In this document: positions 3,660 through 56,390 of the stretch, piece after piece
Layout: every line of letters starts with the position of its first letter
Numbering within the stretch: position 1 is the stretch's first letter
NCBI RefSeq assembly: GCF_963921235.1
Contig: NC_086108.1
Location: 6,944,001 to 7,008,000, forward strand
Source of the DNA: Mobula hypostoma
Taxonomy: Eukaryota
Length of the DNA stretch: 64,000 nt
Direction of reading: 5' to 3'
The notes under the pieces: generated by a model
What the model was told of the DNA's origin: nothing
Database searches by the model: none
What the model saw: the letters and a program-made list of their open reading frames with translations, nothing else
Position numbers and translations under genes: made by a program

Positions 3660-3915
3660 CACACAAAATGCTAGAGGGACTTGGCAGGTTGGTGATAGGT
3701 GAAGCCCGGTGAGGGAGAAGGTATGTGGGTGAAGGAGGGGTTGATGAGACTTCATCTGGCTTCACCTATCACCTGTGCTGCTTCTCCCTCCCCATCTTCT
3801 TACTCTGGTATCCTCCCCCTTCCTTTCCAGTCCTGATGAAGGGTCTTGGCCCGAAACGTCGACTGTACTCTTCCGTAGATGGAGCCTGATCTGCTGAGTT
3901 CCTTCAGCATCCTTT
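3660..3915. mobile_element. PLE family 1 pLTR fragments (inverted part about 3660-3750, plus-strand part about 3750-3915)
   Basis: Matches the pyrimidine-rich 3' region and hammerhead segment of the PLE at 41724-42960. Confidence 0.7.
3828..3865 (+). ncRNA. Minimal type-I hammerhead ribozyme motif (best-preserved copy)
   Basis: CAGTC-CTGATGA-A-GGGTCTTGGCCC-GAAAC-GTC-GACTG. It has stem I CAGUC/GACUG, core CUGAUGA, stem II GGG/CCC, GAAA, a palindromic ACGU stem III, and a GUC cleavage triplet. Confidence 0.8.
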
Positions 3916-4164
3916 GTGATAACAAGCACGACCCATGGATGTGCTGGGGGCAGCCTGCACGTATCACCACACATTCCAGCACCAACATGGTGTCTAAAAT
4001 GTTCAGCAGAATAACACAGGCAAGCTCCATTCCTCCCTCCTACACACAGACCCACGTGCGCGCACGCAATCCCCCAAGTCGTATCTGGCCTCGAGTCTCC
4101 AGCGGACTCACAGACACTGGTTCTTTGACTCCCCGAGGGCTTCAGATCTCAGGCCCCAGTATCC

Positions 4165-5090
4165 GAATCGTGTTTAGTGTCACTAGCATATGTCGTGAAA
4201 TCTGTTGTTTTGTGGCAGCAGTACATTGCAATACTTAGTAATAAAAAACTGTAAATTCCAATCAGAAATATTGTTAAAAAAATTAAATTAAATAAGTCAT
4301 GCAAAAAAAAATGGAGTTGGTGTTCATGGGTTCAACGTCCATTCGGGAATCTGGCGGAGGGGAAGCCACTGTTCCTAATGTGTTGAGTGTGTGTCTTCAG
4401 GCTCCTGATGGCAGCAGTGAGAAGAGGGCATTTCCTAGGTGATGGGGGTCCTTAATGACGGGTGCTGCCTTTTTGTGGCGTCACCTTTCGAAGGTGTCTG
4501 TGATAGTGGGAGGCCAGTTCCCATGATGGAGCTGACTGAGCTCTCAGCTCTCTGCAGCTTATTTCCGATCGTGTGCAGTGCCCCCTACGTACTAGACGGT
4601 GATTAGTGTGCTCTCCACTGTGGCGGTTGTCTGTCGTGTCCAACAATGATAGGGAACCTGTGTGGGAGAGTTTTTAAAGTGCAAAAGTCTTTGGACTGGG
4701 CAGTTCCTCTCACTGGACCTCAGAAATCTGGGTCCAGTGGTATGAAAAAGCATCTGAAACCGGCTTTTCTTGGCTGCAGTGGATGACCATGAGATCTTCT
4801 GTGCCTTGTCATGCCTTTGGCTCTCCATACTGTGTTGCCCAACTGCCTTCCTGGCCACTGGATCTGACTGTAGATCTCGTCCGCCCAGTCCGCCGGAGCT
4901 GGCTTCACATGCTGAGACAAGCGTGTCTGTACCTCGCCAGATTATGAGGCTGCTGGCTAGTCTCACCTGGTTTCGTTTCATTGTCGAAGCTGCGAGAGTC
5001 TTTGGTGACATACCAGATATCCTCAAACTCCGACTGAAATATAGCCACTGTTGTGCTGTGTTTGTAATTGCATTAACATGTTGGGCCCAC
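4165..5090 (-). mobile_element. Rex1/Babar-like 3' fragment interrupted by a ~370 bp insert (about 4625-4990)
   Basis: WAQHVNAITNTAQQWLYFSRSLRISGMSPKTL and TVESTL lie on either side of the insert, followed by the family 3' UTR. Confidence 0.7.
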
Positions 5091-6164
5091 TTGCCCTTCC
5101 CACTGCTGCTCCCTCGAGGAGGACTGAACTTCTGATTGTCCTTCAAAACAACATGTGCCGTAGTAATTACAGTGAGGAAAAGAAAACTCTATTCCAGGTC
5201 TAAAATGGTTGGAGAGATTTGGTTCCTTTAGAGAGAAACTTTGGGCATATGTTGACGATGTCATTGGAACAGAAGAGTGAGTTGAAGACATCTGGAAAGT
5301 CAGTTCGATTACAAGGACTGAGAGAAAAGGTCAAGGTTTATTTTTGCAATGTGAAGCGACTGGAGTTGGCAAAGCTGCAGCTGGAGTGGGACATTTCAGA
5401 ACAGCTGAGTGGAACTAGTGCAAGTGATGAGTGGGTTATGGTCTCTAGCCAAGGTTCCTGTTGACGCGAATTGTTGTGGGACTCCTGGGGTGTTTAAACT
5501 AAATTTATTTTACTGTGGATTTCTCGTACCTTGCTTTATTTTTGTTCCAGTTCAAATTAAAAGTTCTGAATGAGAACAGGCAGAAGTGTCTGTTCATCTT
5601 CTTTTTAACCATTGTCTTAGGATGGCAAATTGTTTGGGTTGACTAATCTTGCATGTTGCTGTGATCCTTTGCTTTCCTGAGCACAGTTCTACTACAATAT
5701 TTATGTACTTCCATTTTGAAGTATCATTTAGCATCATATGTCGTTAAATATGTCGATTTAAGTGCTGGGTCAATTTGGAAAGGTTGGGTACGGGCCAGAA
5801 CCTAGTGGCGGGGTGCAGGCCCAGATTGTACTGATGTGGCAGGGCCCAGGTCCCTGATGGTTGGACGATTTAGATGCTGGGTCAGATGAATTGAAAAGGC
5901 AGGCTGTCGGGACCAGATGCGAGGGTTGGGATGGTTCCTCTGCTCTGCAGTGGGCTGAACTGAGACTGTAGGTCTGTTCTGGACTTGGTGTCTGCAGGCT
6001 CTGCGACATTTACTCTGCTCTGCTCTGCGCTGAACTGAGGCTGTAGGTTTGTTCTGGCTGCTCCAGGCTTTGTGTCTGAGGACGCACTTTTGTTTTAAAT
6101 GCTGCTGTTTGCCTTTACTGTTTACATGATTTGTTTTTTTTTTCTCTCTGTTTTCTTGCAGGCA

Positions 6165-6640
6165 TTCACAGTAGAACACAGAAGTACAATAGAATCAGTG
6201 AAAAACTGCACACAAAGACTAATAAATTGTGCAAATACAAAAGAAATGAGTAACAATAATAAACAAGTGAATAAATAATACTGAGCACATGAATTGTAGG
6301 GTCGTTGAAAGTGAGTCCGTAGGTTGATTGGCTCAGTGTTGTGGTGAGTGAAGTTATCCACACTGGTTCAGGAGCCTGATGGTTGAGGGGTGATAACTGT
6401 TCCTGAACCTGGTGGTGTGGGACCTGAGGCTCATTGTGGTGAGCGAAGTTATCCACACTGGTTCTGGAGCCTGATGGTTGTGGGGTAAGAACTGTTCCTG
6501 AACCTGGTGGTGTTAAGACTCCTTGATGAGAGCAGAGCTTAGACTGGATGGTGGTGGAGGTCCTGGATAATGGGTGCTGCTTTCTTGTGGCAGCGCTCTT
6601 TACAGATGTGCTTAGTGGTGGGGAACGCTTTGCCTGTGAC
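6165..6640 (-). mobile_element. Rex1/Babar-like 3' fragment carrying a 95-bp tandem duplication (6341-6512)
   Basis: SLRSHTTRFRNSY-type coding end plus 3' UTR. The unit starts at both 6341 and 6436. Confidence 0.75.
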
Positions 6641-6884
6641 TGAAGGAACTAGCCTGAGCTCGGGGCCATATTAACTCCTCCTTGGAGGAGTGCCAGGATG
6701 CGCAGTGCTCCCGTGGTTCGTTCGAAGCATTGTCGTTTCTGATGGAGGGCAGAGCGAAATGGTCTTTGTTAAGGGAGTGGACAAGCTTGCACTGACTCGT
6801 ACTGTTGATGGGCGAGAGCTCTGCTGGACTTCATCGTGGGAAGTTGTATAATTCTCTGCTTGATTTCATTCTGATCCTCACAGC

Positions 6885-7240
6885 TGATCTCATTGAAACC
6901 TATTGAACGTTGAAAGGACTAGGAAGAGTGAATGTGAAGAGGATGTTTCCTATGGTGCGGGAGTCTAGGACCAGAGGTCATCACGACCTCAGAATAGAAT
7001 GGAGATGAGGAGGTATTTCTTCAGCCAGAGAGTGGTGAATCTGTGAAATTTGTTGTGGAGGCCAAGCCATTGAATACATTTAAGGCAGAGGTTGATCTAT
7101 TCTTGATTAGTCAGGGTGTGAAGGGATACAGGGAGAAGGCTGGAGATTGGGGCTGAGGAGGAAAATGGATCGGCCATGATGAGATGGTGAGGCAGACTTG
7201 ATGGGCCGAATGGCCTAATTTGCTCTGATGTCTTATGATT
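6885..7240 (+). mobile_element. CR1 LINE 3' fragment
   Basis: DLIETY, FFSQRVVNL-like coding, the GGGCCGAATGGCCT 3' stem-loop and a TCTTATG tail. Confidence 0.8.
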
Positions 7241-8024
7241 TTACCTCATGATGAGTTGACTTGTCTGGATGGCATGCAAGATGAACTTTTCACTGTACTT
7301 ACTATGTGAAAATAATAAACCAATTTGCTAATTTAATTCCCGGGAAATAGGTGGCTTCTTAGTTCTCCATGTCACTCTTTCCTATGTTTGAATTAATCTG
7401 CCAGAGTTGAAAAATAACTCTGACTTGGATAAGGAATCTTGACAGAGCCAGCCAACTCTAAAATAAATGAACCCCCATCTTCCCACAGCAGTACCGCAGT
7501 GCTGGGACTGTAATTTGAGATCGGCTTGACATCTGATGCCGCCTTTGTTTTAATCCTGCTCCCCGAGTGCCACACACACACCTGAAGTGCTGAGGGCTAA
7601 GTGTTGATTTTCCTTTGGGGAATGCTGTAAGGAAAGCCAGGCTTGGGAGTGGAGATGATGTTATTTTAATTAGAGGGAGGTCGGGTGATCTGGAGCAAGG
7701 GCCTGTTGAAGGGCCGCCCTTAATCATCATTTTGTTTACATTCACACAGTACTTTGGATAATCTGTCGGGCACTTGTGATGTCACATCAGGCAGAAATGG
7801 CAGGGATATGGAGAGACCCAGCTCAAACTTCAAAGGAATGTGTCTGTGGAACTCCATTTGCTGTGAAGCTGGATTTGAATGAATGCAGGTTATTGAATGA
7901 AGCCAGGGTCCTTTAAACTAACATGGTTTATTTGAAAGCACTTGTTTTAAACATTTCTCCCCCTTGGGTGTAGGATTTCAGTAGCTCTCCATGTTAGTCC
8001 TGACAGTGTCAATGCCTTATTCAA

Positions 8025-8330
8025 CTCGATCAGAATCAGGTCTAATTTCACTGGCAACTGTCTTGAAATTTGTTGATTTTGCTGCAGCATTACAATGAAA
8101 TACATGATAAAGTAGGAGAAACTGAACTGCAGTAATTCTATATGTATATTAAATAGTTCTGTTAAAATAAGTAGTGCAAAGACATTTTTTTTTAAGAAGT
8201 GAGATGGTGTTCATAGGTTTAACGTCTGCTCAGAAACAGGATGGTGGAGGGGAAGAGGCTGTTCCCGAATCGAAGAGTGTGTGCCTTCAGGCTTCTGTAC
8301 CTCCTTCCTGATGGTATCAATGAGAAGGGG
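8025..8330 (-). mobile_element. Rex1/Babar-like 3' end
   Basis: Reverse complement of the 1260-1537 type tail (AATCAG repeats). Confidence 0.7.
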
Positions 8331-8339
8331 GTTTAGATC

Positions 8340-8635
8340 TTGCATTCCAATGTATGCTGAGGCTTTATAAGGCCACATTTGAAGAACTGTGAACGGTTTT
8401 GTGCCCCTTACCTGAGAAAGGATGTGCCAACACTGAAGAGTCCTGGTTATACAAGAATATGTGCAGGCTCGAAGGGCCGAATGGCCTACTCCTGCACCTA
8501 TTGTCTATGTTTCTATGAATGATCCCAGGAATGGAAGGGAATGGGGAGTGTTTGGCTCTGGGCCTGTACTTGCTGGAGTTTAGAAGAATGAGGGGAGAGC
8601 TCATTAAAACCTACTGAATATTAAAGGACTAGATC
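8340..8635 (+). mobile_element. CR1 ORF2 C-terminal fragment with a nested 59-bp CR1 tail (8459-8517)
   Basis: LRLYK, PYLRKDV and LGLYLLEFRRMRGELI motifs. Confidence 0.75.
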
Positions 8636-8654
8636 AGGGATCCCCAGTTTTTTT

Positions 8655-9050
8655 TATGTTAGTGAGGTCACCTCTCATTCTTCTGAATTCCAGTGAGTAG
8701 ATGCTCAGAGACATCGAATGGTCCTCGTACGACAAGCCTTTCAATCCCGGAATAATTTTTACGAATCTCCTTTGAACCCTCTCCAATGTCATTACATCCT
8801 TTCTTAGATAAGGTGCCCAAAACTGCTCACAATACTCCAAGTGAGGCCTCACCAGTGCCTTATAAACCCCCAGCATCACATCCTTGCTTTTATATTCTAG
8901 TCTTCTCAAAATGAATGCTACATCTCATTTGGCTTCCTCACCACTGATTCAACCTGCAAATTAACTTTGAAGGAATCCTACACAAGGACTTCAAGTCCTT
9001 TTGCACCTTTTTTGAATTTTCTCTCCATTTAGAAACTAGTCTATGCTTTT
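8655..9050 (-). mobile_element. CR1 ORF2 C-terminal fragment
   Basis: ORF 8634-8909 reads YKALVRPHLEYCEQFWAPYLRKDV...LEFRRMRGDL. Confidence 0.85.
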
Positions 9051-9240
9051 ATGAAGAAAAGGGATTAGCTTGAATATACATTTGACATGGACACGAATGG
9101 GCGGAAGGGCCTTTCTCACTACTGTACAACAGCACAGGAACAGGCTTCCGCAGCCTGCACCGAACACAATGGTGAATTAATCTTAATTCTCTTCATCCAT
9201 ACCCCTCCACTTACTGCATATTCATGTGGCTATCTATTAG

Positions 9241-18019: not shown

Positions 18020-20772
18020 TATATTCAATATTCAGGAGGGATAGACATGAAGGAAGGGGAGGTGGGGTGGCGTTGCTGGTTAAAGAGGAGATTAACGCAA
18101 TAGAAAGGAAGGACATAAGCCGGGAAGATGTGGAATCGATATGGGTAGAGCTGCGTAACACTAAGGGGCAGAAGACTGGTGGGAGTTGTGTACAGGCCAC
18201 CTAACAGTAGTAGTGAGGTCGGAGATGGTATTAAACAGGAAATTAGAAATGTGTGCAATAAAGGAACAGCAGTTATAATGGGTGACTTCAATCTACATGT
18301 AGATTGGGTGAACCAAATTGGTAAAGGTGCTGAGGAAGAGGATTTCTTGGAATGTATGCAGGATGGTTTTTTGAACCAACATGTCGAGGAACCAACTAGA
18401 GAGCAGGCTATTCTGGACTGGGTTTTGAGCAATGAGGAAGGGTTAATTAGCAATCTTGTCGTGAGAGGCCCCTTGGGTAAGAGTGACCATAATATGGTGG
18501 AATTCTTCATTAAGATGGAGAGTGACATAGTTAATTCAGAAACAAAGGTTCTGAACTTAAAGAGGGGTAACTTTGAAGGTATGAGACGTGAATTAGCTAA
18601 GATAGACTGGCAAATGACACTTAAAGGATTGACGGTGGATATGCAATGGCAAGTATTTAAAGGTTGCATGGATGAACTACAACAATTGTTCATCCCAGTT
18701 TGGCAAAAGAATAAATCAAGGAAGGTAGTGCACCCGTGGCTGACAAGAGAAATTAGGGATAGTATCAATTCCAAAGAAGAAGCATACAAATTAGCCAGAG
18801 AAAGTGGCTCATCTGAGGACTGGGAGAAATTCAGAGTTCAGCAGAGGAGGACAAAGGGCTTAATTAGGAAGGGGAAAAAAGATTATGAGAGAAAACTGGC
18901 AGGGAACATAAAAACTGACTGTAAAAGCTTTTATAGATATGTAAAAAGGAAAAGACTGGTAAAGACAAATGTAGGTCCCCTGCAGACAGAAACAGGTGAA
19001 TTGATTATGGGGAGCAAGGACATGGCAGACCAATTGAATAATTACTTTGGTTCTGTCTTCACTAAGGAGGACATCAGTAATCTTCCAGAAATAGTAGGGG
19101 ACAGAGGGTCCAGTGAGATGGAGGAACTGAGCGAAATACACGTTAGTAGGGAAGTGGTGTTAGGTAAATTGAAGGGATTGAAGGCAGATAAATCTCCAGG
19201 GCCAGATGGTCTGCATCCTAGAGTGCTTAAGGAAATAGCCCAAGAAATAGTGGATGCATTAGTGATAATTTTTCAAAACTCGTTAGATTCTGGACTAGTT
19301 CCTGAGGATTGGAGGGTGGCTAATGTAACTCCACTTTTTAAAAAAGGAGGGAGAGAGAAACCGGGGAATTATAGACCGGTTAGCCTAACGTCGGTGGTGG
19401 GGAAACTGCTGGAGTCAGTTATCAAGGATGTGATAACAGCACATTTGGAAAGCGGTGAAATCATCGGACAAAGTCAGCATGGATTTGTGAAAGGAAAATC
19501 ATGTCTGACGAATCTCATAGAATTTTTTGAGGATGTAACTAGTAGAGTGGATAGGGGAGAACCAGTGGATGTGGTATATTTGGATTTTCAAAAGGCTTTT
19601 GACAAGGTCCCACACAGGAGATTAGTGTGCAAACTTAAAGCACACGGTATTGGGGGTAAGGTATTGGTGTGGGTGGAGAATTGGTTAGCAGACAGGAAGC
19701 AAAGAGTGGGAATAAACGGGACCTTTTCAGAATGGCAGGCGGTGACTAGTGGGGTACCGCAAGGCTCAGTGCTGGGACCCCAGTTGTTTACAATATATAT
19801 TAATGACTTGGATGAGGGAATTAAATGCAGCATCTCCAAGTTTGCGGATGACACAAAGCTGGGTGGCAGTGTTAGCAGTGAGGAGGATGCTAAGAGGATG
19901 CAGGGTGACTTGGATAGGTTGGGTGAGTGGGCAAATTCATGGCAGATGCAATTTAATGTGGATAAATGTGAAGTTATCCACTTTGGTGGCAAAAATAGGA
20001 AAACAGATTATTATCTGAATGGTGGCCGATTAGGAAAAGGGGAGGTGCAACGAGACCTGGGTGTCATTATACACCAGTCATTGAAAGTGGGCATGCAGGT
20101 ACAGCAGGTGGTGAAAAAGGCGAATGGTATGCTGGCATTTATAGCGAGAGGATTTGAGTACAGGAGCAGGGAGGTACTACTGCAGTTGTACAAGGCCTTG
20201 GTGAGACCACACCTGGAGTATTGTGTGCAGTTTTGGTCCCCTAATCTGAGGAAAGACATCCTTGCCTTAGAGGGAGTACAAAGAAGGTTCACCAGATTGA
20301 TTCCTGGGATGGCAGGACTTCCATATGAAGAAAGACTGGATGAACTGGGCTTGTACTCATTGGAATTTAGAAGATTGAGGGGGGATCTGATTGAAACGTA
20401 TAAAATCCTAAAGGGATTGGACAGGCTAGATGCAGGAAGATTGTTCCCGATGTTGGGGAAGTCCAGAACGAGGGGCCACAGTTTGAGGATAGAGGGGAAG
20501 CCTTTTAGGACCGAGATTAGGAAAAACTTCTTCACACAGAGAGTGGTGAATCTGTGGAATTCTCTGCCACAGGAAACAGTTGAGGCCAGTTCATTGGCTA
20601 TATTTAAGAGGGAGTTAGATATGGCCCTTGTGGCTATGGGGATCAGAGGGTATGGAGGGAAGGCTGGGGCGGGGTTCTGAGTTGGATGATCAGCCATGAT
20701 CATAATAAATGGCGGTGCAGGCTCGAAGGGCCAAATGGCCTACTCCTGCACCTATTTTCTATGTTTCTATGT
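18020..20772 (+). mobile_element. CR1 (HER1-like) LINE, 5'-truncated, near-intact ORF2
   Basis: APE and RT domains, 3' UTR stem-loop GGTGCAGG...GGGCCAAATGGCCT...CCTGCACC, and a (TTTCTATG)2 tail. Confidence 0.95.
18179..20680 (+). CDS. CR1 ORF2 polyprotein: partial APE endonuclease + reverse transcriptase (833 aa open frame, N-terminus lost)
   Basis: Motifs YRPP, MGDFN, LDWVL, SDHN, KSPGPDG, NYRPVSLTS, LDFQKAFDKV, GVPQGSVLGP, KFADDTKL. Upstream endonuclease residues (IFRRDR..GGGVALLVK) lie in another frame, giving one frameshift near 18175. Confidence 0.9.
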   Translation: MGVVYRPPNSSSEVGDGIKQEIRNVCNKGTAVIMGDFNLHVDWVNQIGKGAEEEDFLECMQDGFLNQHVEEPTREQAILDWVLSNEEGLISNLVVRGPLGKSDHNMVEFFIKMESDIVNSETKVLNLKRGNFEGMRRELAKIDWQMTLKGLTVDMQWQVFKGCMDELQQLFIPVWQKNKSRKVVHPWLTREIRDSINSKEEAYKLARESGSSEDWEKFRVQQRRTKGLIRKGKKDYERKLAGNIKTDCKSFYRYVKRKRLVKTNVGPLQTETGELIMGSKDMADQLNNYFGSVFTKEDISNLPEIVGDRGSSEMEELSEIHVSREVVLGKLKGLKADKSPGPDGLHPRVLKEIAQEIVDALVIIFQNSLDSGLVPEDWRVANVTPLFKKGGREKPGNYRPVSLTSVVGKLLESVIKDVITAHLESGEIIGQSQHGFVKGKSCLTNLIEFFEDVTSRVDRGEPVDVVYLDFQKAFDKVPHRRLVCKLKAHGIGGKVLVWVENWLADRKQRVGINGTFSEWQAVTSGVPQGSVLGPQLFTIYINDLDEGIKCSISKFADDTKLGGSVSSEEDAKRMQGDLDRLGEWANSWQMQFNVDKCEVIHFGGKNRKTDYYLNGGRLGKGEVQRDLGVIIHQSLKVGMQVQQVVKKANGMLAFIARGFEYRSREVLLQLYKALVRPHLEYCVQFWSPNLRKDILALEGVQRRFTRLIPGMAGLPYEERLDELGLYSLEFRRLRGDLIETYKILKGLDRLDAGRLFPMLGKSRTRGHSLRIEGKPFRTEIRKNFFTQRVVNLWNSLPQETVEASSLAIFKRELDMALVAMGIRGYGGKAGAGF

Positions 20773-23060: not shown

Positions 23061-23150
23061 CAGTCCTTGTTGAAGGGTCTCGGCCCGAAACGTCGACTGT
23101 TTATTCCCCTCCACTGATGCTACCTGACCTTAGTTCCTCCAGCATTGCTC
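23061..23150 (+). mobile_element. Short hammerhead-bearing PLE-derived unit
   Basis: CAGTC-CTTGTTGA-AGGGTCTCGGCCC-GAAAC-GTC-GACTG (core mutated), followed by the family downstream sequence. Confidence 0.7.
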
Positions 23151-26100: not shown

Positions 26101-26554
26101 AGTGTGCCTGTTGTTGAAGGGTGTGAGGGAAGAGAAGTGAGTGCAGCTACTATTACAAGGGAGAAGGTGCTCAAAAAGCTGAAAGACCTCAGGGTACATA
26201 AGTCACTCAGGCCAAATGAACTATACCCTAGGGTTCTGAAAGAGGTATTGGTAGAGATTGTGGAGACATAGTAATGATCTTTCAAGAATCATTGGACTCT
26301 GATATGCTGCCAAGAGACTGGAAAATTGCAAATGTCACTCCACTCTTTAAGAAAGGAGGCAGCAGAAAGGAAATTATAGACCAGTTAACCTGACCTCAGT
26401 GGTTGGGAAGATGTTAGAGTCAATTGTTAAGGATGAGGTTATGGAGTACTTGGTGACACAGAACAAAATAGGATAAAGTCAGCATGGATTCCTTCAGGGA
26501 AAATCTTACCTGTCGAACCTATTGAAATTCTTTGAGGATATTACAAGTAGGATA

Positions 26555-27449
26555 TTTGTTATTCGTTATTTGTTGTATTCTTTTTTCATGGTAACACGTC
26601 GAAGCTGCACCCTCTCCAACATGCTGGTGGAGAGAGTTTAATTTGGGTTTTTAGTGCTGGAAATACAGTTTGTAGTTACATTTGGACACGACTCATTAGC
26701 GGGGCAGCATTATGGTCGTATTGTTTATTCCAGGGACCAGCTGATTGCGCTTATGCCGGCCGGTTTAGCGAACAGAGCGGCAGACACCCCTGCTGAAATC
26801 TGGAGGAAAACACACAGAGGATGCAGAGGGGGATCGCAAAGGCGAGGAAAGAGGACCGGGTCGAGACAACAGAGACTTATGGAGAAGAGGAGTTTGGTGG
26901 GTAATAAAATGGACGAGTTGACGGTGCTAGCCAGGAGTCAGAGAACATTTCGGGAGAGCAGTGTTATGTGTTTTACTGAAACGTGGCTTCACGAGGACAT
27001 ACCCGACCAAAACTTTTCCATGGAGGGCTTTCAGACTGTTTGGGCTGACCGGAAGTGCACTGAGAGCGGTAAGCGTAAAGGAGTTGGGGGCTTGCTGTTC
27101 TGGTTAACGATGGATGCTGCAATCCTGGGCATATTACGATCGAGGAACGTGTTTGTAGCCCGATATTGAACTTTTTGCTGTTGGACTCCAGCCATATTCC
27201 ACCGAGATACAACACTGGGCGTCATGGGAGGTTGTTCCTGCCTGTGGCCATCGAACTTTGCAGCTCCTCCCGTGAAGGGTCAGACACCCTGAGCCAGTAG
27301 GCTGGTCCTGGACTTATTTCCATCTGGCATAGTTTGCATATTGTTTGTTTGTGGTTTTTGTATTGTTATATTTATGCTCTATACTTGGTTGGTGCAGCTG
27401 TAATGAAACTCAATTTCCCTCGGGATCAATAAAGTATGTTTGTCTGTCT
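26555..27449 (+). mobile_element. Internally deleted Rex1/Babar- or L2-like LINE nested in CR1
   Basis: APE N-terminus (NKMDEL...VMCFTETWLHEDIPD) joined to a 3' end with AATAAA and (TCTG)n. The host CR1 resumes at GATAGATAAAGGG, with GATA duplicated. Confidence 0.75.
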
Positions 27450-27691
27450 GATAGATAAAGGGGGTGTAGTGGATGTTGTATATTTGGACTTTGACAAGGT
27501 GCCACACATGAGGCTGCTTACCAAGTTAAGAGGAAAGTTACTGGCGTGGTTACATCATGGGTAGGAAGTAGCAAGGGGGAATAAAAGGACACTTTTCTGA
27601 TTGGCTGCCAGTGACTAGTGGTGTTCTGCAGGGGTCGGTGTTGGGACTGCTTTTTATGTTGTATATCAATGATTTAGATGATGGAATAGAT

Positions 27692-30753: not shown

Positions 30754-30879
30754 GAATTGTTGCGGGGTGGGAACCGAACTGAAGAGACTGGGGAAGAGGA
30801 GGTTGGCTCACAAATAGAGAAAGCTTGGAGACAGTGTGAGACAGAGGATAAGCAGGTGATAGAGAAGGGACGCGCTCAG

Positions 30880-36149: not shown

Positions 36150-36775
36150 CATGCCTTTCTGCAGATGCTGGAAATCCAGAGCAAGACGCACAAATTGCTG
36201 GAAGAATTCAGCATATTAGGCAACATCTATAAAGTTCAAAGTAGATCTTATTATTAAGTACATATATGTCACCATATACAACCCCGAGATTCATTTTTCT
36301 GCGGGCATACTTAGCAAATCGATAGAATAGTAACTATAGTGGGATCATTGAAAGGTCCACCAGAAGCCAACAAACTGTGTGAATGAAAATATAAATAAAT
36401 AGTAATAAGTAACGAGAACATGAGATAATGAGATAGAGTCCTTTAAGTGAGATCATTGGTTGAGCGGAACATCTCAATGGATGAGCAAGTGAATGTAGTT
36501 ATCCCCTCTTGTTCAATAGCTGGACGGTTGAGGGGTAGTAACTGTTCCTGAACCTGTGTTGCAAGTCCTGAAGCTCTTGTACCTTCTACCTGGTGGCAGC
36601 AGGTAGAAAAGAGCATGGCCTTGGGTGGTGAGGATCACTGATGGTGGATGCTGCTTTCCTACGACAGGAGTTCCCAACCTTTTTTGTGCCATAGACCCCA
36701 GGTTGGGAGCCCCTGATATACCGAAAGGAGTATAGAGTGAACATTTTGGACTGAGACCCTTCATCAGGACTGTGG
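36150..36775 (-). mobile_element. Hammerhead-bearing PLE unit split by a Rex1-like fragment (about 36232-36664) and a hAT MITE (36665-36715)
   Basis: The PLE halves lie at about 36150-36230 and 36725-36772. Confidence 0.7.
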
Positions 36776-39204: not shown

Positions 39205-39985
39205 ATTCCTGAGGAAGGGTTTCAGCCCACAGCATTGACTGTTTATTGATTTCCACAGATGCTGCCTGACCTGCTGAGTTCCTCCAGCACTCTGTGTGTG
39301 TGTGTGTGTGTGTGTGTTGCTTTGGATTTCCAGCATCTGCAGAATTTTTCGTGTTTAATACATTTCTATAGCATCTTTCACATTCCTCGATATGTCCCAA
39401 AGAGCTTTGCCACCAAGCATGCCATTTTGTGGCATATTATGCCCACTACACCGTTAGCATTGAGGGCAGCTGTGGTATAGGTGACCCTCCCAAGAGCCAA
39501 AGCACGAGGCCTTGATTCCAGCCAACATAGCTCTCCAGGTCACCAAGGCACGCAAGCCTCCAAACCCTATGTCAAGTTTGCAGTCATCTTGGAAGATTAA
39601 CAAGTTAGTTAACTTGAGGGAAGCACAATCATGCACGTGGCAGGAACACTATCTGTTATACAAACACAAGAAATCTGTAGATGCTGGAAATCCAAAGCAA
39701 ATGGAGGAGCTCAGCAGATTAGGGAGCATCTATGAAAAAGAGTAAACAGTTGATGCTTTGGGCTGAGACCCTTCTTCAAGACTTCATCTGTTAATCTGAC
39801 TTGGTGGTATAGGGTATGGTGGTGAAAGGACCAGAAAAAACCTTTCCTTCCAGTCCTGGAGAAAGGGTCATGGCCTGAAACGTCGACTGTTTATTCTTCT
39901 CCATAGATGCTGCCTGACTTGCTGAGTTCCTCCACCATTCTGTGCGTGTGTTGCTTTGGATTTCCAGCCAAATTTCTTGTGTTCC
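39205..39985. mobile_element. Cluster of three short hammerhead-bearing PLE units (39205-39355 +, 39660-39785 -, 39851-39985 +)
   Basis: Each matches the 42820-42955 segment. A (TG)n expansion lies at 39293-39316. Confidence 0.75.
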
Positions 39986-40869
39986 TGCAAAATATCTTCT
40001 CACTTCAAAAGCCAAAAAAAACATGATTTTCTGCATCTGCCTGGGATCTAAAGGTTTGTCAAATGCAAGTGGCTGAAGAGGTATTTTGGATAGAATAGAA
40101 CTTAATTGTCATTGCTCAAGACAATGAGATTGTGATGACACTCCAATCCATGCAAAACATATACTTACAATGCGTGTGATATGGCTTAATAAAAAAGCCC
40201 CATGTTTACATGCAGCCAGTGACTTTGATAGTCCATAACACTCAAAGGCCACTGGCAAGTCATAGATTCTTTCAAGGAACCAATCATTATGCACATGGTT
40301 CAAAAGCTATGTTTTTTTCACCCTTTCTGAACTTTACCTTGGCTTGCTTATCCCCATTTTTAATCACAAAATATAAAGAAAAGACTTACCTATTTTATGC
40401 GAGTGCAGCAATTTTATACCAAATTCTAAAAATATTTCCACTTACTGAAATTGCTCCTTATAGTGAGACACTATTGATTTGTCCAAGTTTGTCTGTTAGA
40501 GGTGGTGGTTAGTGGTTTGTCATTACCCTGATTGGAGACTAACGTTTCTGTACCAAAGCAGTTTTTGTTCTATAAATGGATGTTTATAATCACACTTGTG
40601 CCCTCAGGCACTCCGTCCGATCTGCAAAATCTCTGGTTTGATCTCTCTGCTGAGTTGGCTGATTTGACCTAGATACTACGGAATTCCAATCGTACTTATC
40701 ATGTGTGTCCTTCTCCAATGAAAACAGTCTCTCTCCATTTAAAGCAACACACACAAAATGCTGGAGGAACTCAGCAGGTCAGGCAGCATCTGTGGAGAAG
40801 AGTAAACAGTCAAGCCGAGACCCTCCATCTATTCTGTTTTAGTGTTCGTGATTTTAAATATCCCTATCA

Positions 40870-40949: not shown

Positions 40950-41114
40950 CCCTGTCAGATCCCATTGCAAATACCTCTCTTCCAGTAGAACAACTGCCTA
41001 TGTGGGTCCTGTTGCATGCACCTCATACAGCTCCCGAAGCCAGCCGTGGCAGGCTACACACATAAAAATTGCTGGTGAACGCAGCAGGCCAGGCAGCATC
41101 TCTAGGAAGAAGTG

Positions 41115-41151
41115 CAGTCGACGTTTCAGGCCGAGACCCTTCGTCAGGCTG
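41115..41151 (-). ncRNA. Minimal hammerhead ribozyme motif in a short PLE unit (about 41055-41151)
   Basis: Reverse complement CAGC-CTGACGA-AGGGTCTCGGCCT-GAAAC-GTC-GACTG. Confidence 0.7.
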
Positions 41152-41185
41152 GTAGCTTTTCTGGCTGAGGTTATCAAATTTGATA

Positions 41186-41475: not shown

Positions 41476-41723
41476 TATTGAGCTTGAGATCTAGTGGGAC
41501 AATTGCTCAGATTCTGTATAGAGCAACAAATTTGCCAGTAGGTTCCTGCTGCTGTCTGTAAAATTTTGTACATTCTCCCGTGGCCACGTGAATTTCCTCA
41601 GGGTGTTCCGGTTTCTTCCCACAGTCCAAGGATGTACTGGTTACTAGGTTAATTAGTCACATGGGTATAACTTGGTGGCACGTTACTGTGCTGTAGCTCT
41701 AAATAGAATAAAATAAAACCCAG

Positions 41724-42960
41724 ATGTGTCTCCGCTGCATCTGCTCTCAGGTTGAGGCTTTTCATTCCAGGACGAGGGAGGTGTCCTCCTTTTTTAAAGA
41801 AAGGGGCTTCCCTTCCTCCACCATCAACTCTGCTCTCAAACACATCTCCCCCATTTCACACACATCTGCCTCACCCCATCCTCCCACCACCCCACTAGGA
41901 ATAGGGTTCCCCTTGTCCTCACCTACTACCCCACCAGCCTCTAGGTCCAACATATAATTCTCTGTAACTTCCGTCACTTCCAACGGGATCCCACCACCAA
42001 GCACATCTTTCCCTCCCCCCCCCTCTGCTTTCTGCAGGGATCGCTCCCTATGCGACTCCCTTGTCCATTCATCCCTCCATCCCTTCCCACTGATCTCCCT
42101 CCCGGCACTTATCCTTGTAAGCAGAACAAGTGCTACACATGCCCTCACACTTCCTCCCTTACCACCATTCAGGGCCCCAGTCAGTCCTTCCAGGTGAGGC
42201 AACGCTTCACCTGTGAGTCGGCTGGTGTGATATACTGCGGCCGGTGCTCCCGATGTGGGCTTCTATATATTGGTGAGACCTGACACAGACTGGGAGACTG
42301 TTTTGCTGAACACCTATGCTCTGTCTGCCAGAGAAAGCAGGATCTCCCAGTGGCCACACATTTTAATTCTACATCCCATTCCCATTCTGATATGTCCACC
42401 CACGGCCTCCTCTACTGTCAAGATGAAGCCACACTCAGGTTGGAGGAACAACACCTTATATTCCGTCTGGGTAGCCTCCAACCTGCTGGCATGAACATTG
42501 GCTTCTCTAATTTCCGTTAATGCCCCTCCCCCCTTCTTACCCCATCCCTTATTTATCATTTTTTTTATTTTTTCCACGTTCTTTCTCTTTTTTCTCCCTC
42601 TGTCCCTCTCACTATATCTTCCTCTGATGCTCCCCTCCCCCTTTCTTTCTCCCTAGGCCTCCCGTCCCATGATCCTCTCTCTTCCCCAGCCTGGTATCCC
42701 TTTTGCCAATCAACTTTCCAGCTCTTGGCTCCATCCCTCCCCCTCCTGTCTTCTCCTATCATTTTGGATCTCCCCCTCCTCCTCCCACTTTCAAGTCACT
42801 TACTATCTCTTCTTTCAGTTAGTCCTGACGAAGGGTCTCGGCCTGAAACGTTGACTGTACCTCTTCCTATGGATGCTGCCTGGCCTGCTGCATTCCACCA
42901 GCATTTTGTGTGTGTTGCTTGAATTTCCAGCACCTGCAAATTTCCTCGTGTTTGCATTCC
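41724..42960 (+). mobile_element. Penelope-like element (family 1, Neptune-like), 5'-truncated: RT thumb/linker, Cys-rich linker, GIY-YIG endonuclease, pLTR
   Basis: LRCICS...FFKERGFP; GTYPCKQNKCYTCPH...FTCESAGVIYCGRCSRCGLLYIGET; PVATHFNS; LEEQHLIFRLGSLQP.GMNI. Confidence 0.9.
42821..42856 (+). ncRNA. Hammerhead ribozyme motif in the PLE pLTR
   Basis: AGTC-CTGACGA-AGGGTCTCGGCCT-GAAAC-GTT-GACT. Confidence 0.75.
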
Positions 42961-43059
42961 TAGACTTTATCTATTTACACCACTTAAAACACTCAAACTT
43001 GGAATAATTCTGATAAATCTGTCTTAAAAAGAGATTTACCATTTTAGAACCATGGAACA

Positions 43060-45037: not shown

Positions 45038-45697
45038 GGTGAGTGAAGTTATCCACACTAGTTCAGGAGCCTGATGGTTGTGGGGTAATAACTGTTCCTG
45101 AACCTGGTGGTGTGGGACCTGAGGCTCATTGTGGTGAGTGAAGTTATCCACACTGGTTCAGGAGCCTGATGGCTGTGGGGTAATAACTGTTCCTGAACCT
45201 GCTGGTGTGGGACCTGAGGCTCATTGTGGTGAGTGAAGTTATCCACACTGGTTCAGGAGCCTGATGGTTGTGGGGTAATAACTGTTCCTGAACCTGGTGG
45301 TTTGGGACCTGAGGCTCATTGTGGTGAGTGAAGTTATCCACACTGGTTCAGGAGCCTGATGGTTGTAGGGCAATAACTGTTCCTGAACCTGGTGGTGTGG
45401 GACCTGAGGCTCATTGTGGTGAGTGAACTTATCCACACTGGTTCAGGAGCCTGATGGTTGTGGGGTAATAACTGTTCCTGAACCTGGTGGTTTGGGACCT
45501 GAGGCTCATTGTGGTGAGTGAAGTTATCCACACTGGTTCAGGAGCCTGATGGTTGTAGGGCAATAACTGTTCCTGAACCTGGTGGTGTGGGACCTGAGGC
45601 TCATTGTGGTGAGTGAACTTATCCACACTGGTTCAGGAGCCTGATGGTTGTGGGGTAATAACTGTTCCTGAACCTGGTGGTGTGGGACCTGAGGCTC
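45038..45697. repeat. Tandem array of about 7 x 95 bp derived from a Rex1/Babar-like 3' end
   Basis: The unit GGTGAGTGAAGTTATCCACACTGGTTCAGGAGCC...GACCTGAGGCTCATTGT starts at 45038, 45133, 45228 and so on. Confidence 0.95.
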
Positions 45698-48664: not shown

Positions 48665-49290
48665 TTTAAAATTGACCTATGCTTCTGCCAAAAAAAGAGG
48701 GATCACCCGGTGGGCACCCATTTCAATTCTACTTCCCATTCCCATTCCAACATATCAGCCCATGGCCTTCTCTACTGCCACGACAAGGCCACACTCAGGT
48801 CAGAAGAGCAACATCTTATATTCTGTCTGGAAAGCACAGATTTCTTGAACTTCTGGTAAATGTTCCTCCTCTTCACCCTTCACCCATTTCCATTTCTCTC
48901 TCTCTCTTTTCATATCTCCTCACCTGCCCATCACCTCCCACTGGTGCTCCTCCTCCCTCCCTTTCTTCCATGTTTTCCATGTTTCCTGTCAGATTACCCC
49001 TTCTCCAGCCCTTTATCTCTTTCAACAATTGACTTCCTAGCTCTTTGTCTCACCCCTCCCCCTCCTGATTTTCACCTATCACCTACCACCTTGTACTACT
49101 ACTTCCTTCCCTCCCCCACCTTTTTGCACTGAATTCTCATTTTATTCCTCCAGTCCTGATGAAGGGTCTCAGTCTGAAACGTCAACTGTTTAATCATTTC
49201 CAATAGATGCTGCCTGTCATGCTGAGTTCCTCCTGCACTTTGTGTGTGTTGCTTTGGATTTCCAGCATCTGCAGATTTTTGTGTGTTTTA
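48665..49290 (+). mobile_element. PLE family 1 3' fragment with hammerhead motif at 49151-49188
   Basis: PVGTHFNSTSHSH...EEQHLIF, and CAGTC-CTGATGA-AGGGTCTCAGTCT-GAAAC-GTC-AACTG. Confidence 0.8.
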
Positions 49291-49624: not shown

Positions 49625-50259
49625 GTTCAATGGTTCAATCTAATATCAGAGAATGTATACAACCTGAAATTACTTTTCATTGACATCCACGTAACAGAAA
49701 AAAGCCCGAAGAATGAATGACAGAAAACATCAGAACCCCAAAGCCGCTCCTCCCCCCCACACATAAGCAGCAGCAAATGCATCGACCTCCCCCCGCCCCC
49801 CCACCATGCAAGCAATAGCAAAGCCCCCAAAGAAATCTTGACCTAGAGTCCAATGAAAACTATTGCCCAACCCAACACTTTGGTATCTCAAACAGCCTCT
49901 CTCTCACTAGTGAGGGAGAGAGAGATTGCTCCTGCAACAACGACGAGAGTGGGAGACCAGAAGCTCGCTGGTTCAGTATCATAATTGTCTGCTTTGCTTC
50001 TGTAAGTTCCCCCAACTCAAGGATCGACAGGCTTTTACTCACCATCATAGAGAGAGAGGATCGCTCGAGTGCAAGGGCCTTCTGCTAACAGTAGCGTACA
50101 CCACCTGCTGTCTCGATGTTTCAGTCTCCTATGAAGCTTCAGTCGGTGATATCGGCGACGAACCAGGTCACCCATGGGGCCCCACGCCGGTGGTGCACGT
50201 CTTTCACACTGCACCTGGAGATAACAAAACACCCAGCCGGTCGTTTGAGATGCAGCTGT
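49625..50259 (-). mobile_element. Non-coding element sharing its tail with 34358-35180
   Basis: Shared (TTGAACC)n-type tail and 3' ~200 bp. Confidence 0.6.
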
Positions 50260-50648: not shown

Positions 50649-52234
50649 TAATTGCTGCCACTGTGATTGAGGAAGGTAGCTCACTATCAAGTTGATGAAG
50701 AAAGGGCAAAAGATGTTGACCTTGTTGAAGCTGCATCCCAAACAATGAACCTTTGAAAGTTGATATTAATTCTGCTTCCTCTGTTTCTTTACACAGTGCA
50801 TTCCAGTTGACAGAAACTTGCTGTGGAAAATGTTTCCACGTGCCACCACCTGCTTTTCTGCCATGCATCGTCAGTAGATGTTCTCTTCATAGCGAGCCAC
50901 TGCTGGCTTTGGTTGACCCATTCCATGAGCCTTTTCACAGCCTGTCAGGCCTTCAACTGTTCCCTTTATAAAATTATCTCTTAAAGGCGGAATGTAGAAA
51001 TCTACTTGTGTATTTGGACAGATCTTCTTAAAACAGCAATTTGCTCAAAAGAGTAAAGTTTTGTTCGGTTGTAAACTTGTAAAATGTTCCATTCCAGTTT
51101 ATGACTTTGGTAAAGCAATGTTGTTACCTGGGAGTAAAGGTGTTCAAAGTAAATTTTATTAAAGTACATGTATGTCACCACATAGAACCCTGAAATTCTT
51201 TTTCCTGTGGGCATACTCAGCAAATCTATGGAATAGTAACTACAGGATCAATGGAAGATCAACCAGACTGCAGAAGTCGACAAACTGCAGGAGACAACAG
51301 ATAACGAGAACATGAAGTAACAAGATAAAGAGTCCTTAAAGTGAGATCATTGGCTGGGGAACATATCAATGAATGGGCAAATGAGTGTAGTTATCCTCTT
51401 TTGATCAAGAGCCTGATGGTTGAGGGGTAGTAACTTCCTGAACCTGGTGGTGAGAGTCCTGAGGCTCTTATACCTCCTCCTTGATGGTAGCAGCGAGAAA
51501 AGAGCAGGTACAAGAGCCTCAGGCGAGTATTCAGCCCATCTAGCCTATTTTGCTCATTTAGATCACAGTTGATCTATTTCCTGTGTCCCGTTTCAATTAG
51601 TATTAGTTTTAAGTAGATTTAATCACTGCTTGTACCCTTCTGAATTATAGCAGTTTTAAAAAAATATTCAAGATCGTCAAAGTATATTGATTAATTAGAA
51701 AATTATTCCTTTAGGCTTTTAAGAGGTGAGTGGTTTAAGCACTAAACTTTCCTTGGAGAAAGGAATCTCATCAATCATCTTGTTTCCAACTGGGGCTGGC
51801 TTAAAAGAACAGATTTCGCTCGTCACTTGGAATGTCAGTAGATTAAGTTCTTAAACGTTTCCTCTGCTCCAAGTTCTAAATAGATTGTGTATTTCTTGCA
51901 GATAAATAATCATTTATTTAATTTATGTGGGGGAAAAAGGTATTTCAACCTTCAGGAATTTTGTGTCCGCTCTCCTTGCTTCCTTGCTGTAGGTGTATGT
52001 GTTCAACATTTTTAGACTTGTTTTTTTTAAAACCTAATTTCCTCAATGTGATACAAGAAATCCACCATTTGTGCATACTTATTCTGTGACTCTGCATAGG
52101 ACTATACGTGCCATGGTATTTTTATCCATAGCTATACACTGAAATGGACAATCTTCCCTACTGCTCACTATGAATCAGAATCAGGTTCATTATCACTGAC
52201 GTATGTTGTGAAATTTGGGGGCCACTTTTTGACG

Positions 52235-52780
52235 ATTTTATTGCCATCTGCTAAAAGCAGGACTTCCCATTGGCCAAACATTTTAATTCCCATTCTCATT
52301 CCTGTTCTGACGTGAGAACCTTTGGCCTCCTCTTGTGCCAAGATGAGGCCACCCTCAGGGTGGAGGAGCAACACCTTGTATTCCATCTGGGTAGCCTCCA
52401 ACCAGACGACACAAATATAGATTTCTTTGAGTAAACAAATTCCCTCCCCCCCCTCACCTTCCTCTGTTCCCCACTCTTAACCTTTTACCTCTTCTCACCT
52501 GCACATTACTTACCCCTGGGACCCCTCCTCCTAGAGTCCTCTCCTATCAGATTCCTTTTCCTCCAGCCCTTGACCGGTCCCACCCACCTTGCTTCACCTG
52601 TCACCTTCCAGCTAGCGTCCTTTCCCTCGCCAACCTTTTCATCCCCTTTCCAGCCCTGAAGAAGGGTCTCCGCCCGAAATGTTGACTATATGTCCATTTC
52701 CATAGAAGCTATGGAGTTTTTCCAGCATTTTGTGTGTGTTGCTCTGGATTTCCAGCTTCTGCAGACTTTCTTGTATTTAT
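52235..52780 (+). mobile_element. PLE family 1 3' fragment with degenerate hammerhead (52651-52687)
   Basis: EATLRVEEQHLVFHLGSLQ plus pLTR. Confidence 0.8.
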
Positions 52781-54579: not shown

Positions 54580-54831
54580 TATTTTCTTTTCTTGCTGGCG
54601 GTTTGATGTTTATTTTTAGAAGCTTTTTGTATGACACATGGCTCCGGGGTTGTACACCTAATGGGTTCTTTTTTTTCTCACTTTTTCTGCTTAGTAGGTT
54701 TTTTTTGTTATCACAAATTTTTTTTCAATCTTTAAGATAATGTCTTTTTCGAGACATTGTAAGTGTTGTTACTTCAATGTACGTGTGTTATTTCTTTTGT
54801 ATAACATAACAATAAAAAGATTTGAAAAGGA
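54580..54831 (+). mobile_element. T-rich retroposed 3' end (L1/Tx1-like) with 12-bp TSD
   Basis: AGGAAGGAGGTA at 54568-54579 and 54832-54843. AATAAA and a purine-rich tail end the insert. Confidence 0.65.
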
Positions 54832-56129
54832 AGGAAGGAGGTACAGAAACCTGAAGGCGCACACGATGATTCAGGAACAGTTTCTTCCTCTCTGCCATCA
54901 ATTTCTGAATGGACATTGAATCCAGGAACACTATCTCACTACTTTTTTTTCCTCTCTTTTTGCACTAATTATTTAATTTAACTAACGAAGGGTCCCGGCT
55001 TAAAACGTCGACTGTACCTCTTCCTACAGATGCTGCCTGGCCTGCTGCGTTCACCAGCATTTTTTGTGTGTGTTGCATATATATGTAATTCACAGTTTTT
55101 TCTCTCTATTATGTATTGCATTGTAATAAATTTCACAAAATATGCCAGTAATATTAAACCTGTTTCTGATAAGTGTGTATCTTAAAGTAAACACGAAGTT
55201 AGACCCGCATTCCGGGAGTCCCGTGTCTGCCTTTGAATTAGTTTAATGTTTTGAAGTGATAAAACATAACCTCTATCATTTGGGAATGGCACCTCCAAGT
55301 CACACACCATCTCGAGTTTAAAATATTGTCATTCCCTCATTGCCATTGGGTGTAAATCCTGAAATTCCTCTGTTCCTCACACTACGAGTGTCTTCCATCG
55401 CGTGGCTGCAGCTGATTAGTAAGTGACATCCAACACCACTGCCAAGGCAAAAAGAGAGTGCAATTGCTGCCAACAATGCCCATATCACAAGGAGAAAATT
55501 TAAAAGAGGAATTGTCAGATTGAGTCATATCTTGATTTCATTTACCCCTGCCCCACTGTGGTGAACATTTTGCTATATTTAAGTAGCAAGAATTGTTTCC
55601 TTTCTGTGTTGACCATGTCTGTTCAGGGAGAGAGATTCCTAGTTTCCACTACTGCTTATGAAGAATACCATCATCAGGGACCCCCGCCATTCACGGCATG
55701 CTCTCTTCTCGCTGCTGCCATCAGGAACCACACCACCAGGTTCAGGAACAGTTACTACCCCTCAACTATCAGGCTCTTGAACCAAAGAGGATAATTTCAC
55801 TCATCACAACACTGAACTGTTCCCACAGCTTATGGACTCACTTTCAAGGACTCTTCATCTCATGTTCTCAATATCTATTGCTTATTATTATTATTGTTTT
55901 TTCATTTTGTATTTGCACAGTTGGCTGTCTTTTGCACATTGGTGGTTTGTCCATCCTGTTGTGTGCATTCATTTATTGATTCTATTGTCTTTCTTGTATT
56001 TACTGTGAATGCCCGCAGGAAAATGAATCTCGGGGTTGTGTGTGTGTATATATATATAAAAATTTACATTGAATTTTGAATTGCCATTGCAGTAAGCAAC
56101 TTTGAACTATGAAATTGGAAACATACACC

Positions 56130-56390
56130 TTAGGTCCCCTCCTATCCACCACTCTTCAATCAGATTTCTTCCTCTCCAGCCCTTTATCTTTCCTACCCAC
56201 CTGGATTCACCTATCACCTTTGAGCTATCCTTCTTCCCCTGCCTGCACCTCTTTTTTAATTCTGGCATCTTCCTTCTTCCTTTACAGTCCTGCAGAAAGG
56301 TCTCAGCCTGAAATGTTGACTGTTCGTTTATTTCTATAGATGCTGCCCAACCTGCTGAGTTCCTCCAGCATTTTGTGTGTGTTGCTACAG
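56130..56390 (+). mobile_element. PLE family 1 pLTR fragment with degenerate hammerhead (56285-56322)
   Basis: Homologous to 48990-49250. Confidence 0.75.

Follow-up and report, generated by a model that had tools for sequence, protein, structure and literature searches.

The window analysed here is a 64,000-nt stretch of the Mobula hypostoma genome (GCF_963921235.1, NC_086108.1, positions 6,944,001-7,008,000 of the forward strand). It carries 13 copies of a hammerhead ribozyme motif, all likely 3' fragments of one Penelope-like element (PLE) family of Neptune type. The coding part of the family is seen as a broken, 5'-truncated frame at 41725..42520 (+), which holds the end of a reverse transcriptase (RT) thumb, a CX4CX2C linker and a GIY-YIG-type endonuclease, and which is interrupted by two internal stops and by frame changes. 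A pyrimidine-rich spacer (42521..42819, +) leads from the endonuclease stop to a hammerhead at 42820..42857 (+), which passes our descriptor with a GUU triplet and belongs to subfamily B, and the remainder of the terminal repeat follows at 42858..42954 (+). The first-pass annotation had set this motif directly after the GIY-YIG ORF, but the endonuclease frame stops at a TAA at 42518-42520, 300 nt upstream.

The other copy matching the descriptor is an intact minimal type-I motif at 3828..3865 (+), whose cut is predicted to fall after 3860. The 3' PLE fragment that holds it (3753-3918) adjoins, at its 5' end, an inverted piece of the same element (3660..3752, -), a pyrimidine tract joined to the tail end without the ribozyme. 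Two fragments run from the endonuclease C-terminus to the long tail: 48675..49290 (+), in which the motif (49151-49188) has an intact core and damaged stems, and 52254..52779 (+), in which the motif (52651-52688) has intact core boxes and damage to stems I and III. The fragment at 56121..56390 (+) retains 164 nt of pyrimidine tract before a motif (56285-56322) with a broken first core box. The short copy at 23061..23146 (+) begins at stem I, and both an insertion and a substitution disrupt its first core box. That at 36716..36772 (-) has a broken GAAA box, and that at 39207..39357 (+) combines a broken GAAA box with a long 3' tail. The short copy at 39660..39783 (-) has a broken core and lies head-to-head, with 57 nt between, with one at 39841..39983 (+), which includes 10 nt of the upstream pyrimidine tract and has a broken first core box. 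Without the 5' strand of stem I, the short copy at 40741..40834 (-) also bears an 8-nt deletion across the GAAA box. Subfamily B is further represented by a short copy at 41050..41152 (-), with GUC and core intact and a 1-nt deletion in stem I, and by a 97-nt copy at 54982..55078 (+), which lies inside another repeat, begins at the core and has both boxes broken.

When the window was searched with a profile, all 13 motif positions given in the first-pass annotation were recovered, at E-values from 4.9e-9 to 2e-38; the same profile found no match at E<=1 in the reversed window. The profile was trained on 10 of the 13 copies, with those at 23061, 36772 and 40834 outside the training set. Coordinates in that annotation are motif starts on the plus strand and low ends on the minus strand, where the motifs span 36735-36772, 39746-39783, approximately 40797-40834 and 41115-41152. 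A possible fourteenth insertion at 36157..36233 (-) was ruled out, as it is the tail half of the 36772 (-) copy, separated from it by later insertions. Weak profile matches at 773-841 (E 0.06) and 26791-26827 (E 0.4) were excluded from the count. Eight tandem repeats were detected in the window and none contains the ribozyme unit, so there is no array of the kind that defines retrozymes. Among copies on the same strand, the smallest separations are 318 and 646 nt, and these are between independent insertions that have decayed.

Both the consensus and the site of the predicted cut (after C3860) were borne out, and anatomy and homology alike support the identification of these motifs as minimal type-I hammerheads belonging to a PLE terminal repeat. 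The consensus fold has a 5-bp stem I, an extra A after position 9, a 4-bp stem II and a palindromic ACGU at 15.2-16.2 with no helix III loop, and the majority consensus has CUGANGA, GAAA and UH. Helix I is 5 bp in both 3828 and 42820 (type-I closure), the extra A between 9 and 10.1 is found in 13 of 13 rows, and the position of the closing pair G10.1-C11.1 is GC in six, GU in five and AU in one of 12. Four copies had been credited with the core and an NUH triplet. Core and UH do survive in 3828, 41152, 42820 and 49151, and also in 52651 (5/13), but the whole fold (core plus stems I-III, by descriptor) is retained in two of 13, 3828 and 42820, rather than four. The 41152 (-) copy has lost one base from the 5' strand of stem I, and in 49151 a G1.1>A change breaks the pair beside the cut and stem II is weak. 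In natural flanks, 3828 has stem I/II pair probabilities of 0.82-0.91, whereas stems I and II of 42820 are predicted not to form (p=0.01). At the last position of the 42820 triplet, GUU, C occurs in about 80% of family contig depth.

It is extremely improbable that the likeness to a hammerhead is a chance property of an ordinary repeat end. Such a reading could draw on the Rfam search proposed in the first-pass annotation, which returned no hammerhead family among three matches at E<=5, and on covariation, which was not beyond that of shuffles (0.132, against 0.125 for shuffled data, 218/500; the alignment had 14 rows, some of them shifted at stem I). The Rfam result means that the proposed check is blind to these motifs. 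Against chance, 60 shuffles yielded no descriptor match and the window yielded two, stem II was paired in all cells counted in the alignment used for covariation, and all four diagnostic traits of Cervera and de la Pena 2014 except covariation are present, with the location as published (PMC4209133).

The window peptide matches ray and shark proteins down to E 4e-99. It has no Pfam match of its own, and its GIY-YIG assignment rests on these homologues: Pfam GIY-YIG was found in six of seven scanned and RVT_1 also in two, with only one above the curated cut-off. In P0007 and P0009, RVT_1 lies at 1-121 and GIY-YIG at approximately 355-432, which places the endonuclease C-terminal to the RT. The linker, CKQNKCYTC in the window peptide, precedes the endonuclease, and its C58 and C63 are invariant in nine rows; in the same nine-row alignment, endonuclease Cys 98/101/104 are invariant and His residues are mostly conserved, a pattern that may correspond to the CCHH motif of Neptune endonucleases. 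Judged from the linker and domain order, the family is likely Neptune-type, with the proviso that Nematis has the same linker. In a zebra shark homologue the frame continues into LMKGLRPKRQL, identical at 9 of 11 residues to the ray motif frame, LMKGLGPKRRL, which suggests that the motif is kept in shark relatives. The 64-kb window has neither a full-length element nor a 5' pseudo-LTR; only the 3' repeat occurs. Two alternative 3' ends (42919-42920 and 42954-42955) appear both as loose ends in public contigs and among the window copies, and the resulting optional 35-nt tail, together with the inverted 5' piece at 3660-3752, agrees with the insertion structure published for PLEs, in which the tail is 30-40 bp.

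The expectation that the ribozyme would be better conserved than its flank held at the family level and failed among private changes, in statistics that rest on 13 copies. Excluding CpG positions, 16/327 ribozyme positions and 90/690 flank positions were mismatched (p=4e-5), and the difference lay in variants shared between copies (4/327 vs 60/684, p=1e-6), as private changes were equally frequent in ribozyme (12/327) and flank (26/684; p=1.0). The signal came largely from the pyrimidine stretch just after the motif; without it, p was 0.03 for shared changes and 0.12 for all changes. CpG positions in the core and stems were 25-36% mismatched. A ribozyme that is conserved between subfamilies and accumulates private mutations at the rate of its flank points to selection on the mobile parent and not on the inserted copies. 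With whole folds in only two of 13 copies and decay the same as in adjoining DNA, the copies are likely inert relics and not cutters of host RNA. We hold with considerable confidence that the 13 motifs are minimal type-I hammerhead motifs in the 5'-truncated tails of one very abundant, likely Neptune-type PLE family, the inserted copies being likely inert relics in neutral decay.

The first-pass annotation had suggested that intact same-strand copies in a host pre-mRNA might cleave it by pairing. We regard such long-range pairing and cutting as highly improbable. Two descriptor-passing copies do lie on one strand, and two sequencing runs presumed to be RNA contain family sequence (17,675 and 10,602 contigs). 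The ray proteins P0003, P0005 and P0011, annotated with host-gene names, contain the element's peptide, which implies that copies lie within gene models elsewhere, and Xenopus retrozymes are under-represented in introns. Yet 3828 and 42820, the only intact same-strand pair, are 39 kb apart. ViennaRNA predicts their active dimer to be less stable than two monomers by 6.7 kcal/mol, and than an inactive duplex by about 16, a comparison that is indicative only, as it ignores core tertiary energy; a rough chain model would add about 11 kcal/mol for the loop, and 42820 is the copy predicted to misfold in its own flanks. The rates of private mutation give no sign of selection on copies once inserted, and the 9:4 strand split is not significant (p=0.27). 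Published minimal hammerheads are described as weak even as dimers (PMC4209133), eight of nine Xenopus dimers were uncleaved, and the anole RNA-seq is reported to have no reads ending at the cut site (PMC11167929). Taken together, PMC4209133 and PMC11167929 describe PLE hammerheads as slow even as dimers, with the one tested alongside its protein requiring that protein. As to host genes in the window, none of 150 frames of at least 50 aa in non-repeated DNA matched Pfam at E<=0.01. Splice sites were also scanned for crudely, with 19 candidates as the outcome; no homologue was found for the two best-looking on the minus strand, 50043-50214 and 60018-60120, and the former had no Atlas match above 0.80. 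These searches, which may overlook short exons, identified no host gene.

The 5' ends of the copies bear on how the relics were made. Eight of 13 lie in the interval from -10 to +8 relative to the first stem I base (no more than 19 nt from the 5' edge of the ribozyme), and none lies at +9 to +60 or at -74 to -11. Under a uniform model this has p of about 1e-5, for a range picked once the results had been seen. In 7/7 cases, 40-nt pieces consisting of tail only were detected, a rate that is optimistic because the pieces came from window copies, five of the seven in the training set. These observations, and upstream flanks of the short copies that are mutually unrelated, would fit a separate non-autonomous mini-element of 90-150 nt (SINE-like or retrozyme-like), or a specific RT stop at the ribozyme edge, in place of random truncation. 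We nonetheless consider this unlikely. Long and short copies alike include members of both subfamilies and of both 3' end types, and the short ones have no private leader or diagnostic changes in common and form no tandem array in the window. The proposal would account for how the copies are truncated and nothing more, and it can hold alongside the reading of them as relics. Loose contig ends at 42821 (652 in one set) were a mixture of unrelated flanks and the subfamily A tract, which has diverged (agreement 0.4). The combination of pyrimidine tract and CAG at stem I could suggest a splice acceptor, for which a Drosophila element offers a precedent (PMC4209133). This idea was set aside: crude scores were 7.6-10.9 in four of six copies and 4.1 and -1.5 in the others, and the short copies have no upstream exon in common.

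We put forward, tentatively and as less likely than not, a broader version of the truncation idea. On this view no hammerhead load so far described exceeds that of the ray lineage, with about 10^5 copies competent to fold and up to 10^6 relics, mostly arising from RT stopping specifically at the 5' edge of stem I. Fold-back of the cDNA on its own CAGTC/GACTG could cause the stop, and the fold, while not cutting, would then influence insertions and give rise to a 90-150 nt ribozyme-only mini-element.

For the relics themselves, we propose the following origin. In an active tandem parent, the motif in the pseudo-LTR would be cut after GUC only as a dimer, through pairing of ACGU between two copies, probably with help from the element's protein, judging from published PLEs. 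The element's endonuclease would nick DNA and reverse transcription would begin, presumably primed at either of two sites, separated by 35 nt and lying about 65 and 100 nt downstream of the cut site. Uncut RNA is copied through the ribozyme, as is shown by the 13 of 13 copies that span the cut site. Copying would usually stop early, the commonest stopping point being the 5' edge of stem I. After insertion, the solitary copies lose CpG heavily and mutate equally in and outside the ribozyme, as the counts above show. In the anole element, ribozyme mutants are reported to leave insertion unaffected and the main substrate is uncut RNA (PMC11167929).

The class to which these motifs belong is known, and what is added is a ray family of that class. 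Like the minimal hammerheads of Cervera and de la Pena 2014 (PMC4209133), the ray motifs are type-I with a helix I of 4-5 bp, an extra nucleotide at 9/10.1 and G10.1-C11.1; both are palindromic at 15.2-16.2, lie in a terminal repeat, mostly persist as solitary truncated copies and include opposite-strand pairs 100-700 bp apart. The ray helix II has 4 bp, in contrast to 7-8 bp in the Schistosoma motifs of that paper, two supplement files of which, when searched, contained no shark or skate terms. Neptune PLEs (Craig et al. 2021, PMC8557442) share with the ray family a C-terminal GIY-YIG after the RT, a CX2-5CxxC linker, inverted 5' pieces and a 30-40 bp optional tail, although here only 5'-truncated copies are seen and the clade is assigned by the linker that, in the same source, Nematis shares. 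In Anolis Poseidon (Frangieh et al. 2024, PMC11167929), likewise, two alternative 3' ends follow the ribozyme by about 100 nt and uncut RNA is copied; Poseidon lacks the zinc-finger-like linker of the ray family, and the open frame from an ATG within the core described for it was not seen in the ray copies. Non-LTR retrozymes, reported from one chondrichthyan genome (Li et al., bioRxiv 10.64898/2026.07.22.740005), are also type-I hammerhead units from PLE terminal repeats, but by that account are tandem arrays of at least two units, whereas the ray copies are all dispersed. The openly accessible literature that was searched, subscription journals, Repbase and bioRxiv supplements aside, listed no dedicated shark or ray description.

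The large genomic load proposed for the family is supported by public contigs, 247,320 of which align to it. By extrapolation the genome may have 10^5-10^6 copies, a load that probably exceeds the 4,000-9,000 reported in PMC4209133 for coelacanth and Xenopus. Depth added up over contigs (11.5 million in the motif bin against 12 in a flank bin, one set) is not a copy number, and no evidential weight attaches to the lack of coverage of the 16-nt flank bin 42995-43010 in three other sets. Were distant copies truly to cut host transcripts, this would represent a genome-wide cost of retroelements, and nothing here supports that. Rfam is shown to miss such motifs, and their high copy number makes this genome suited to asking what PLE hammerheads do: 10^4-10^5 intact copies would give power on intronic strand depletion, post-insertion selection and the position of 5' junctions.

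Hammerhead motifs of the Penelope-like retroelement (PLE) family were found at 13/13 of the places listed by the first-pass annotation, using a pattern search and a print-out of the window. The claim of about 13 dispersed motifs was also borne out by a profile trained on 10 of the 13 copies, which recovered 13 motif copies at E values between 4.9e-9 and 2e-38. The same profile also picked up an additional tail fragment, a short inverted fragment and two marginal matches, with zero matches in the reversed window used as a control. The family makes up 3,828 of the 64,000 bases (6%), and nine copies lie on the plus strand and four on the minus strand (p=0.27). The additional tail fragment, at 36157-36233, belongs to the 36772(-) copy as its second half and has been separated from the rest by later insertions. 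At 39660-39983, two decayed copies stand head-to-head with 57 nt between them and may stem from one inverted insertion event. The pieces at 41050-41152(-) and 41725-42954(+), both of subfamily B and 88% alike over 100 nt, are divergently oriented and separated by SINE-like repeats; they are possibly a single insertion with an inverted 5' piece. Other repeats in the window include a young LINE insertion at 18149-20680 (+) with an open 843-residue frame carrying endonuclease and RT domains, presumably CR1-like, further LINE fragments on the same strand at 25110-33216, and a 95-bp tandem repeat at 45038-45697 (6.9 copies at 96%), with 1.8 copies of that unit at 6339-6513.

The majority sequence of the copies reads as a type-I hammerhead: stem I is CAGUC/GACUG, an extra A follows the CUGANGA box, a four-base loop caps stem II (GGGU/GCCY), and C-G-U-C comes after GAAA, which makes helix III the palindrome ACGU without a loop. 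An excerpt of PMC4209133 gives the type-I fold, extra nucleotide and loopless palindrome as traits of PLE minimal hammerheads. A strict descriptor matched twice in the window (3828 and 42820) versus zero times in 60 shuffles. Core and triplet had been described as kept at 3828, 41115, 42821 and 49151; core boxes and UH are retained in 5/13 copies, but the whole fold only in those two. The 41152 copy is missing one stem I base, the 49151 copy has lost the pair beside the cut, and stems I and III are damaged in the 52651 copy. In natural flanks, stems I and II of 3828 are predicted to be kept (0.82-0.91), and 42820 is predicted to misfold (0.01). Across copies, 79% of cells are paired (100% in stem II), and covariation of paired positions was not above shuffles. 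The Rfam search proposed in the first-pass annotation detected no hammerhead in the window. A long hairpin at 51450-51536 (+), weakly matching Rfam MIR6201 (33 bits vs a cut-off of 69), is probably an inverted repeat.

Non-CpG mismatches to the majority sequence were rarer in core and stems (16/327 cells) than in the flank (90/690; p=4e-5), and CpG positions of core and stems were mismatched at 25-36%. With copy extents slightly shorter than in that count, shared changes differed between ribozyme and flank (4/327 vs 60/684, p=1e-6), but private changes did not (12/327 vs 26/684, p=1.0). Much of the shared flank excess sits in the pyrimidine stretch immediately 3' of the motif; without it, p was 0.03 for shared changes and 0.12 overall. 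In our interpretation, the motif was maintained in the parent lineages (two subfamilies, of 10 and 3 copies) and decayed neutrally after insertion, although with n=13 selection on one copy is possible.

Contigs of four public sequencing runs were aligned to 41690-43010 at 80% likeness (247,320 contigs in run X1; 224,810 in run X5). Loose ends with unrelated flanks numbered at least 572 in X1 and at least 472 in X5 behind 42954, and at least 461 in X5 behind 42919, 35 nt away; the window copies terminate near the same two 3' positions. The 35-nt stretch between them is the optional PLE tail, which an excerpt of PMC11167929 links to two reverse-transcription start sites. The predicted cut site is spanned by all 13 copies, which fits the anole PLE, for which the same excerpt describes uncut RNA as the main template. 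An inverted piece, another PLE trait at insertions, adjoins the 3828 copy. Counted from stem I and read by eye, the 5' ends lie at -1095, -476, -397, -164, -75, -10, 1, 1, 1, 2, 3, 6 and 8, and none of the 13 lies at the predicted cut site. Eight of the 13 fall within 19 nt about the first base of stem I (23061, 36772, 39207, 39783, 39841, 40834, 41152 and 54982), a cluster with a post hoc probability, for the window copies under a uniform model, of about 1e-5. A splice-acceptor-like pyrimidine tract plus CAG ends within stem I at 3810-3831, 49135-49154, 52635-52654 and 56270-56288 (+), the same position as the end of the Drosophila Penelope intron.

The 42821 copy had been placed directly after a GIY-YIG ORF. 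A GIY-YIG-type frame does lie upstream, but it is broken: between about 41725 and its TAA (42518-42520) it changes frame and is interrupted by two stops. Translated through stops with X, it gave a 191-residue query with matches to 14 of 173 candidate proteins; those from Mobula (83%) and Hypanus ranked highest, followed by ones from three sharks, which points to a myliobatiform ray as the likely host. The window peptide itself had no Pfam match; GIY-YIG was matched in 6/7 homologues scanned with Pfam, two of them also with RVT_1 upstream. The peptide contains a CX4CX2C linker, and such a cysteine linker is given as a Neptune/Nematis trait in an excerpt of PMC8557442. Copies at 48675 and 52254 also start in the endonuclease tail. 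A zebra shark homologue continues into LMKGLRPKRQL, with 9/11 residues equal to the ray motif's frame, a hint that the hammerhead motif is old. Ray gene models under host-gene names (P0003, P0005 and P0011) include this retroelement's peptide and are likely annotation artefacts or exonised copies.

That intact same-strand copies in a host pre-mRNA would pair and cut it, as had been suggested, we consider very improbable. The search for a host gene within the 64-kb window found none, and the intact copies 3828 and 42820 are 39 kb apart. The sole gain of an active dimer over two monomers is the four-pair helix III, and ViennaRNA predicts the dimer to be less stable than the monomers by 5.5-7.9 kcal/mol and than an inactive duplex by about 16 kcal/mol, and the loop would cost some 11 kcal/mol more; these energies ignore tertiary energy, so true dimers would score poorly too. 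Published PLE hammerhead activity is low, dimers included, in the excerpt of PMC4209133, and 8/9 published Xenopus dimers were without cleavage. According to the excerpt of PMC11167929, the anole ribozyme depended on its protein, and no RNA-seq reads ended at the cut site. Two exon-like stretches lie on the minus strand. That at 50043-50214 (172 nt) has a good acceptor, the donor GTGAGT and a frame open over 57 residues, and a homologue search for it found none; for that at 60018-60120, the overlapping 61-residue frame likewise returned no homologue.

At one copy per 4.9 kb, and with the 3.68 Gb of a related stingray's genome (bioRxiv 10.1101/2025.06.08.657570, in excerpt), hand arithmetic from this one window gives, with a wide range, about 7.5 x 10^5 copies and, at 2/13, about 10^5 intact ones; an excerpt of PMC4209133 counts about 4,000 in coelacanth and 9,000 in Xenopus. 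The very large genomic load anticipated earlier agrees with this extrapolation and, in kind, with the contig numbers, which are not a copy count. A non-LTR retrozyme, an element reported in one chondrichthyan (bioRxiv 10.64898/2026.07.22.740005, in excerpt), was ruled out because the window holds no tandem array of the unit. The papers listed by our literature search included none devoted to this ray PLE hammerhead family. On every feature testable in sequence, the ray motif is a PLE minimal hammerhead, and by analogy it would work like one; the ray family is a new addition to an already known class.
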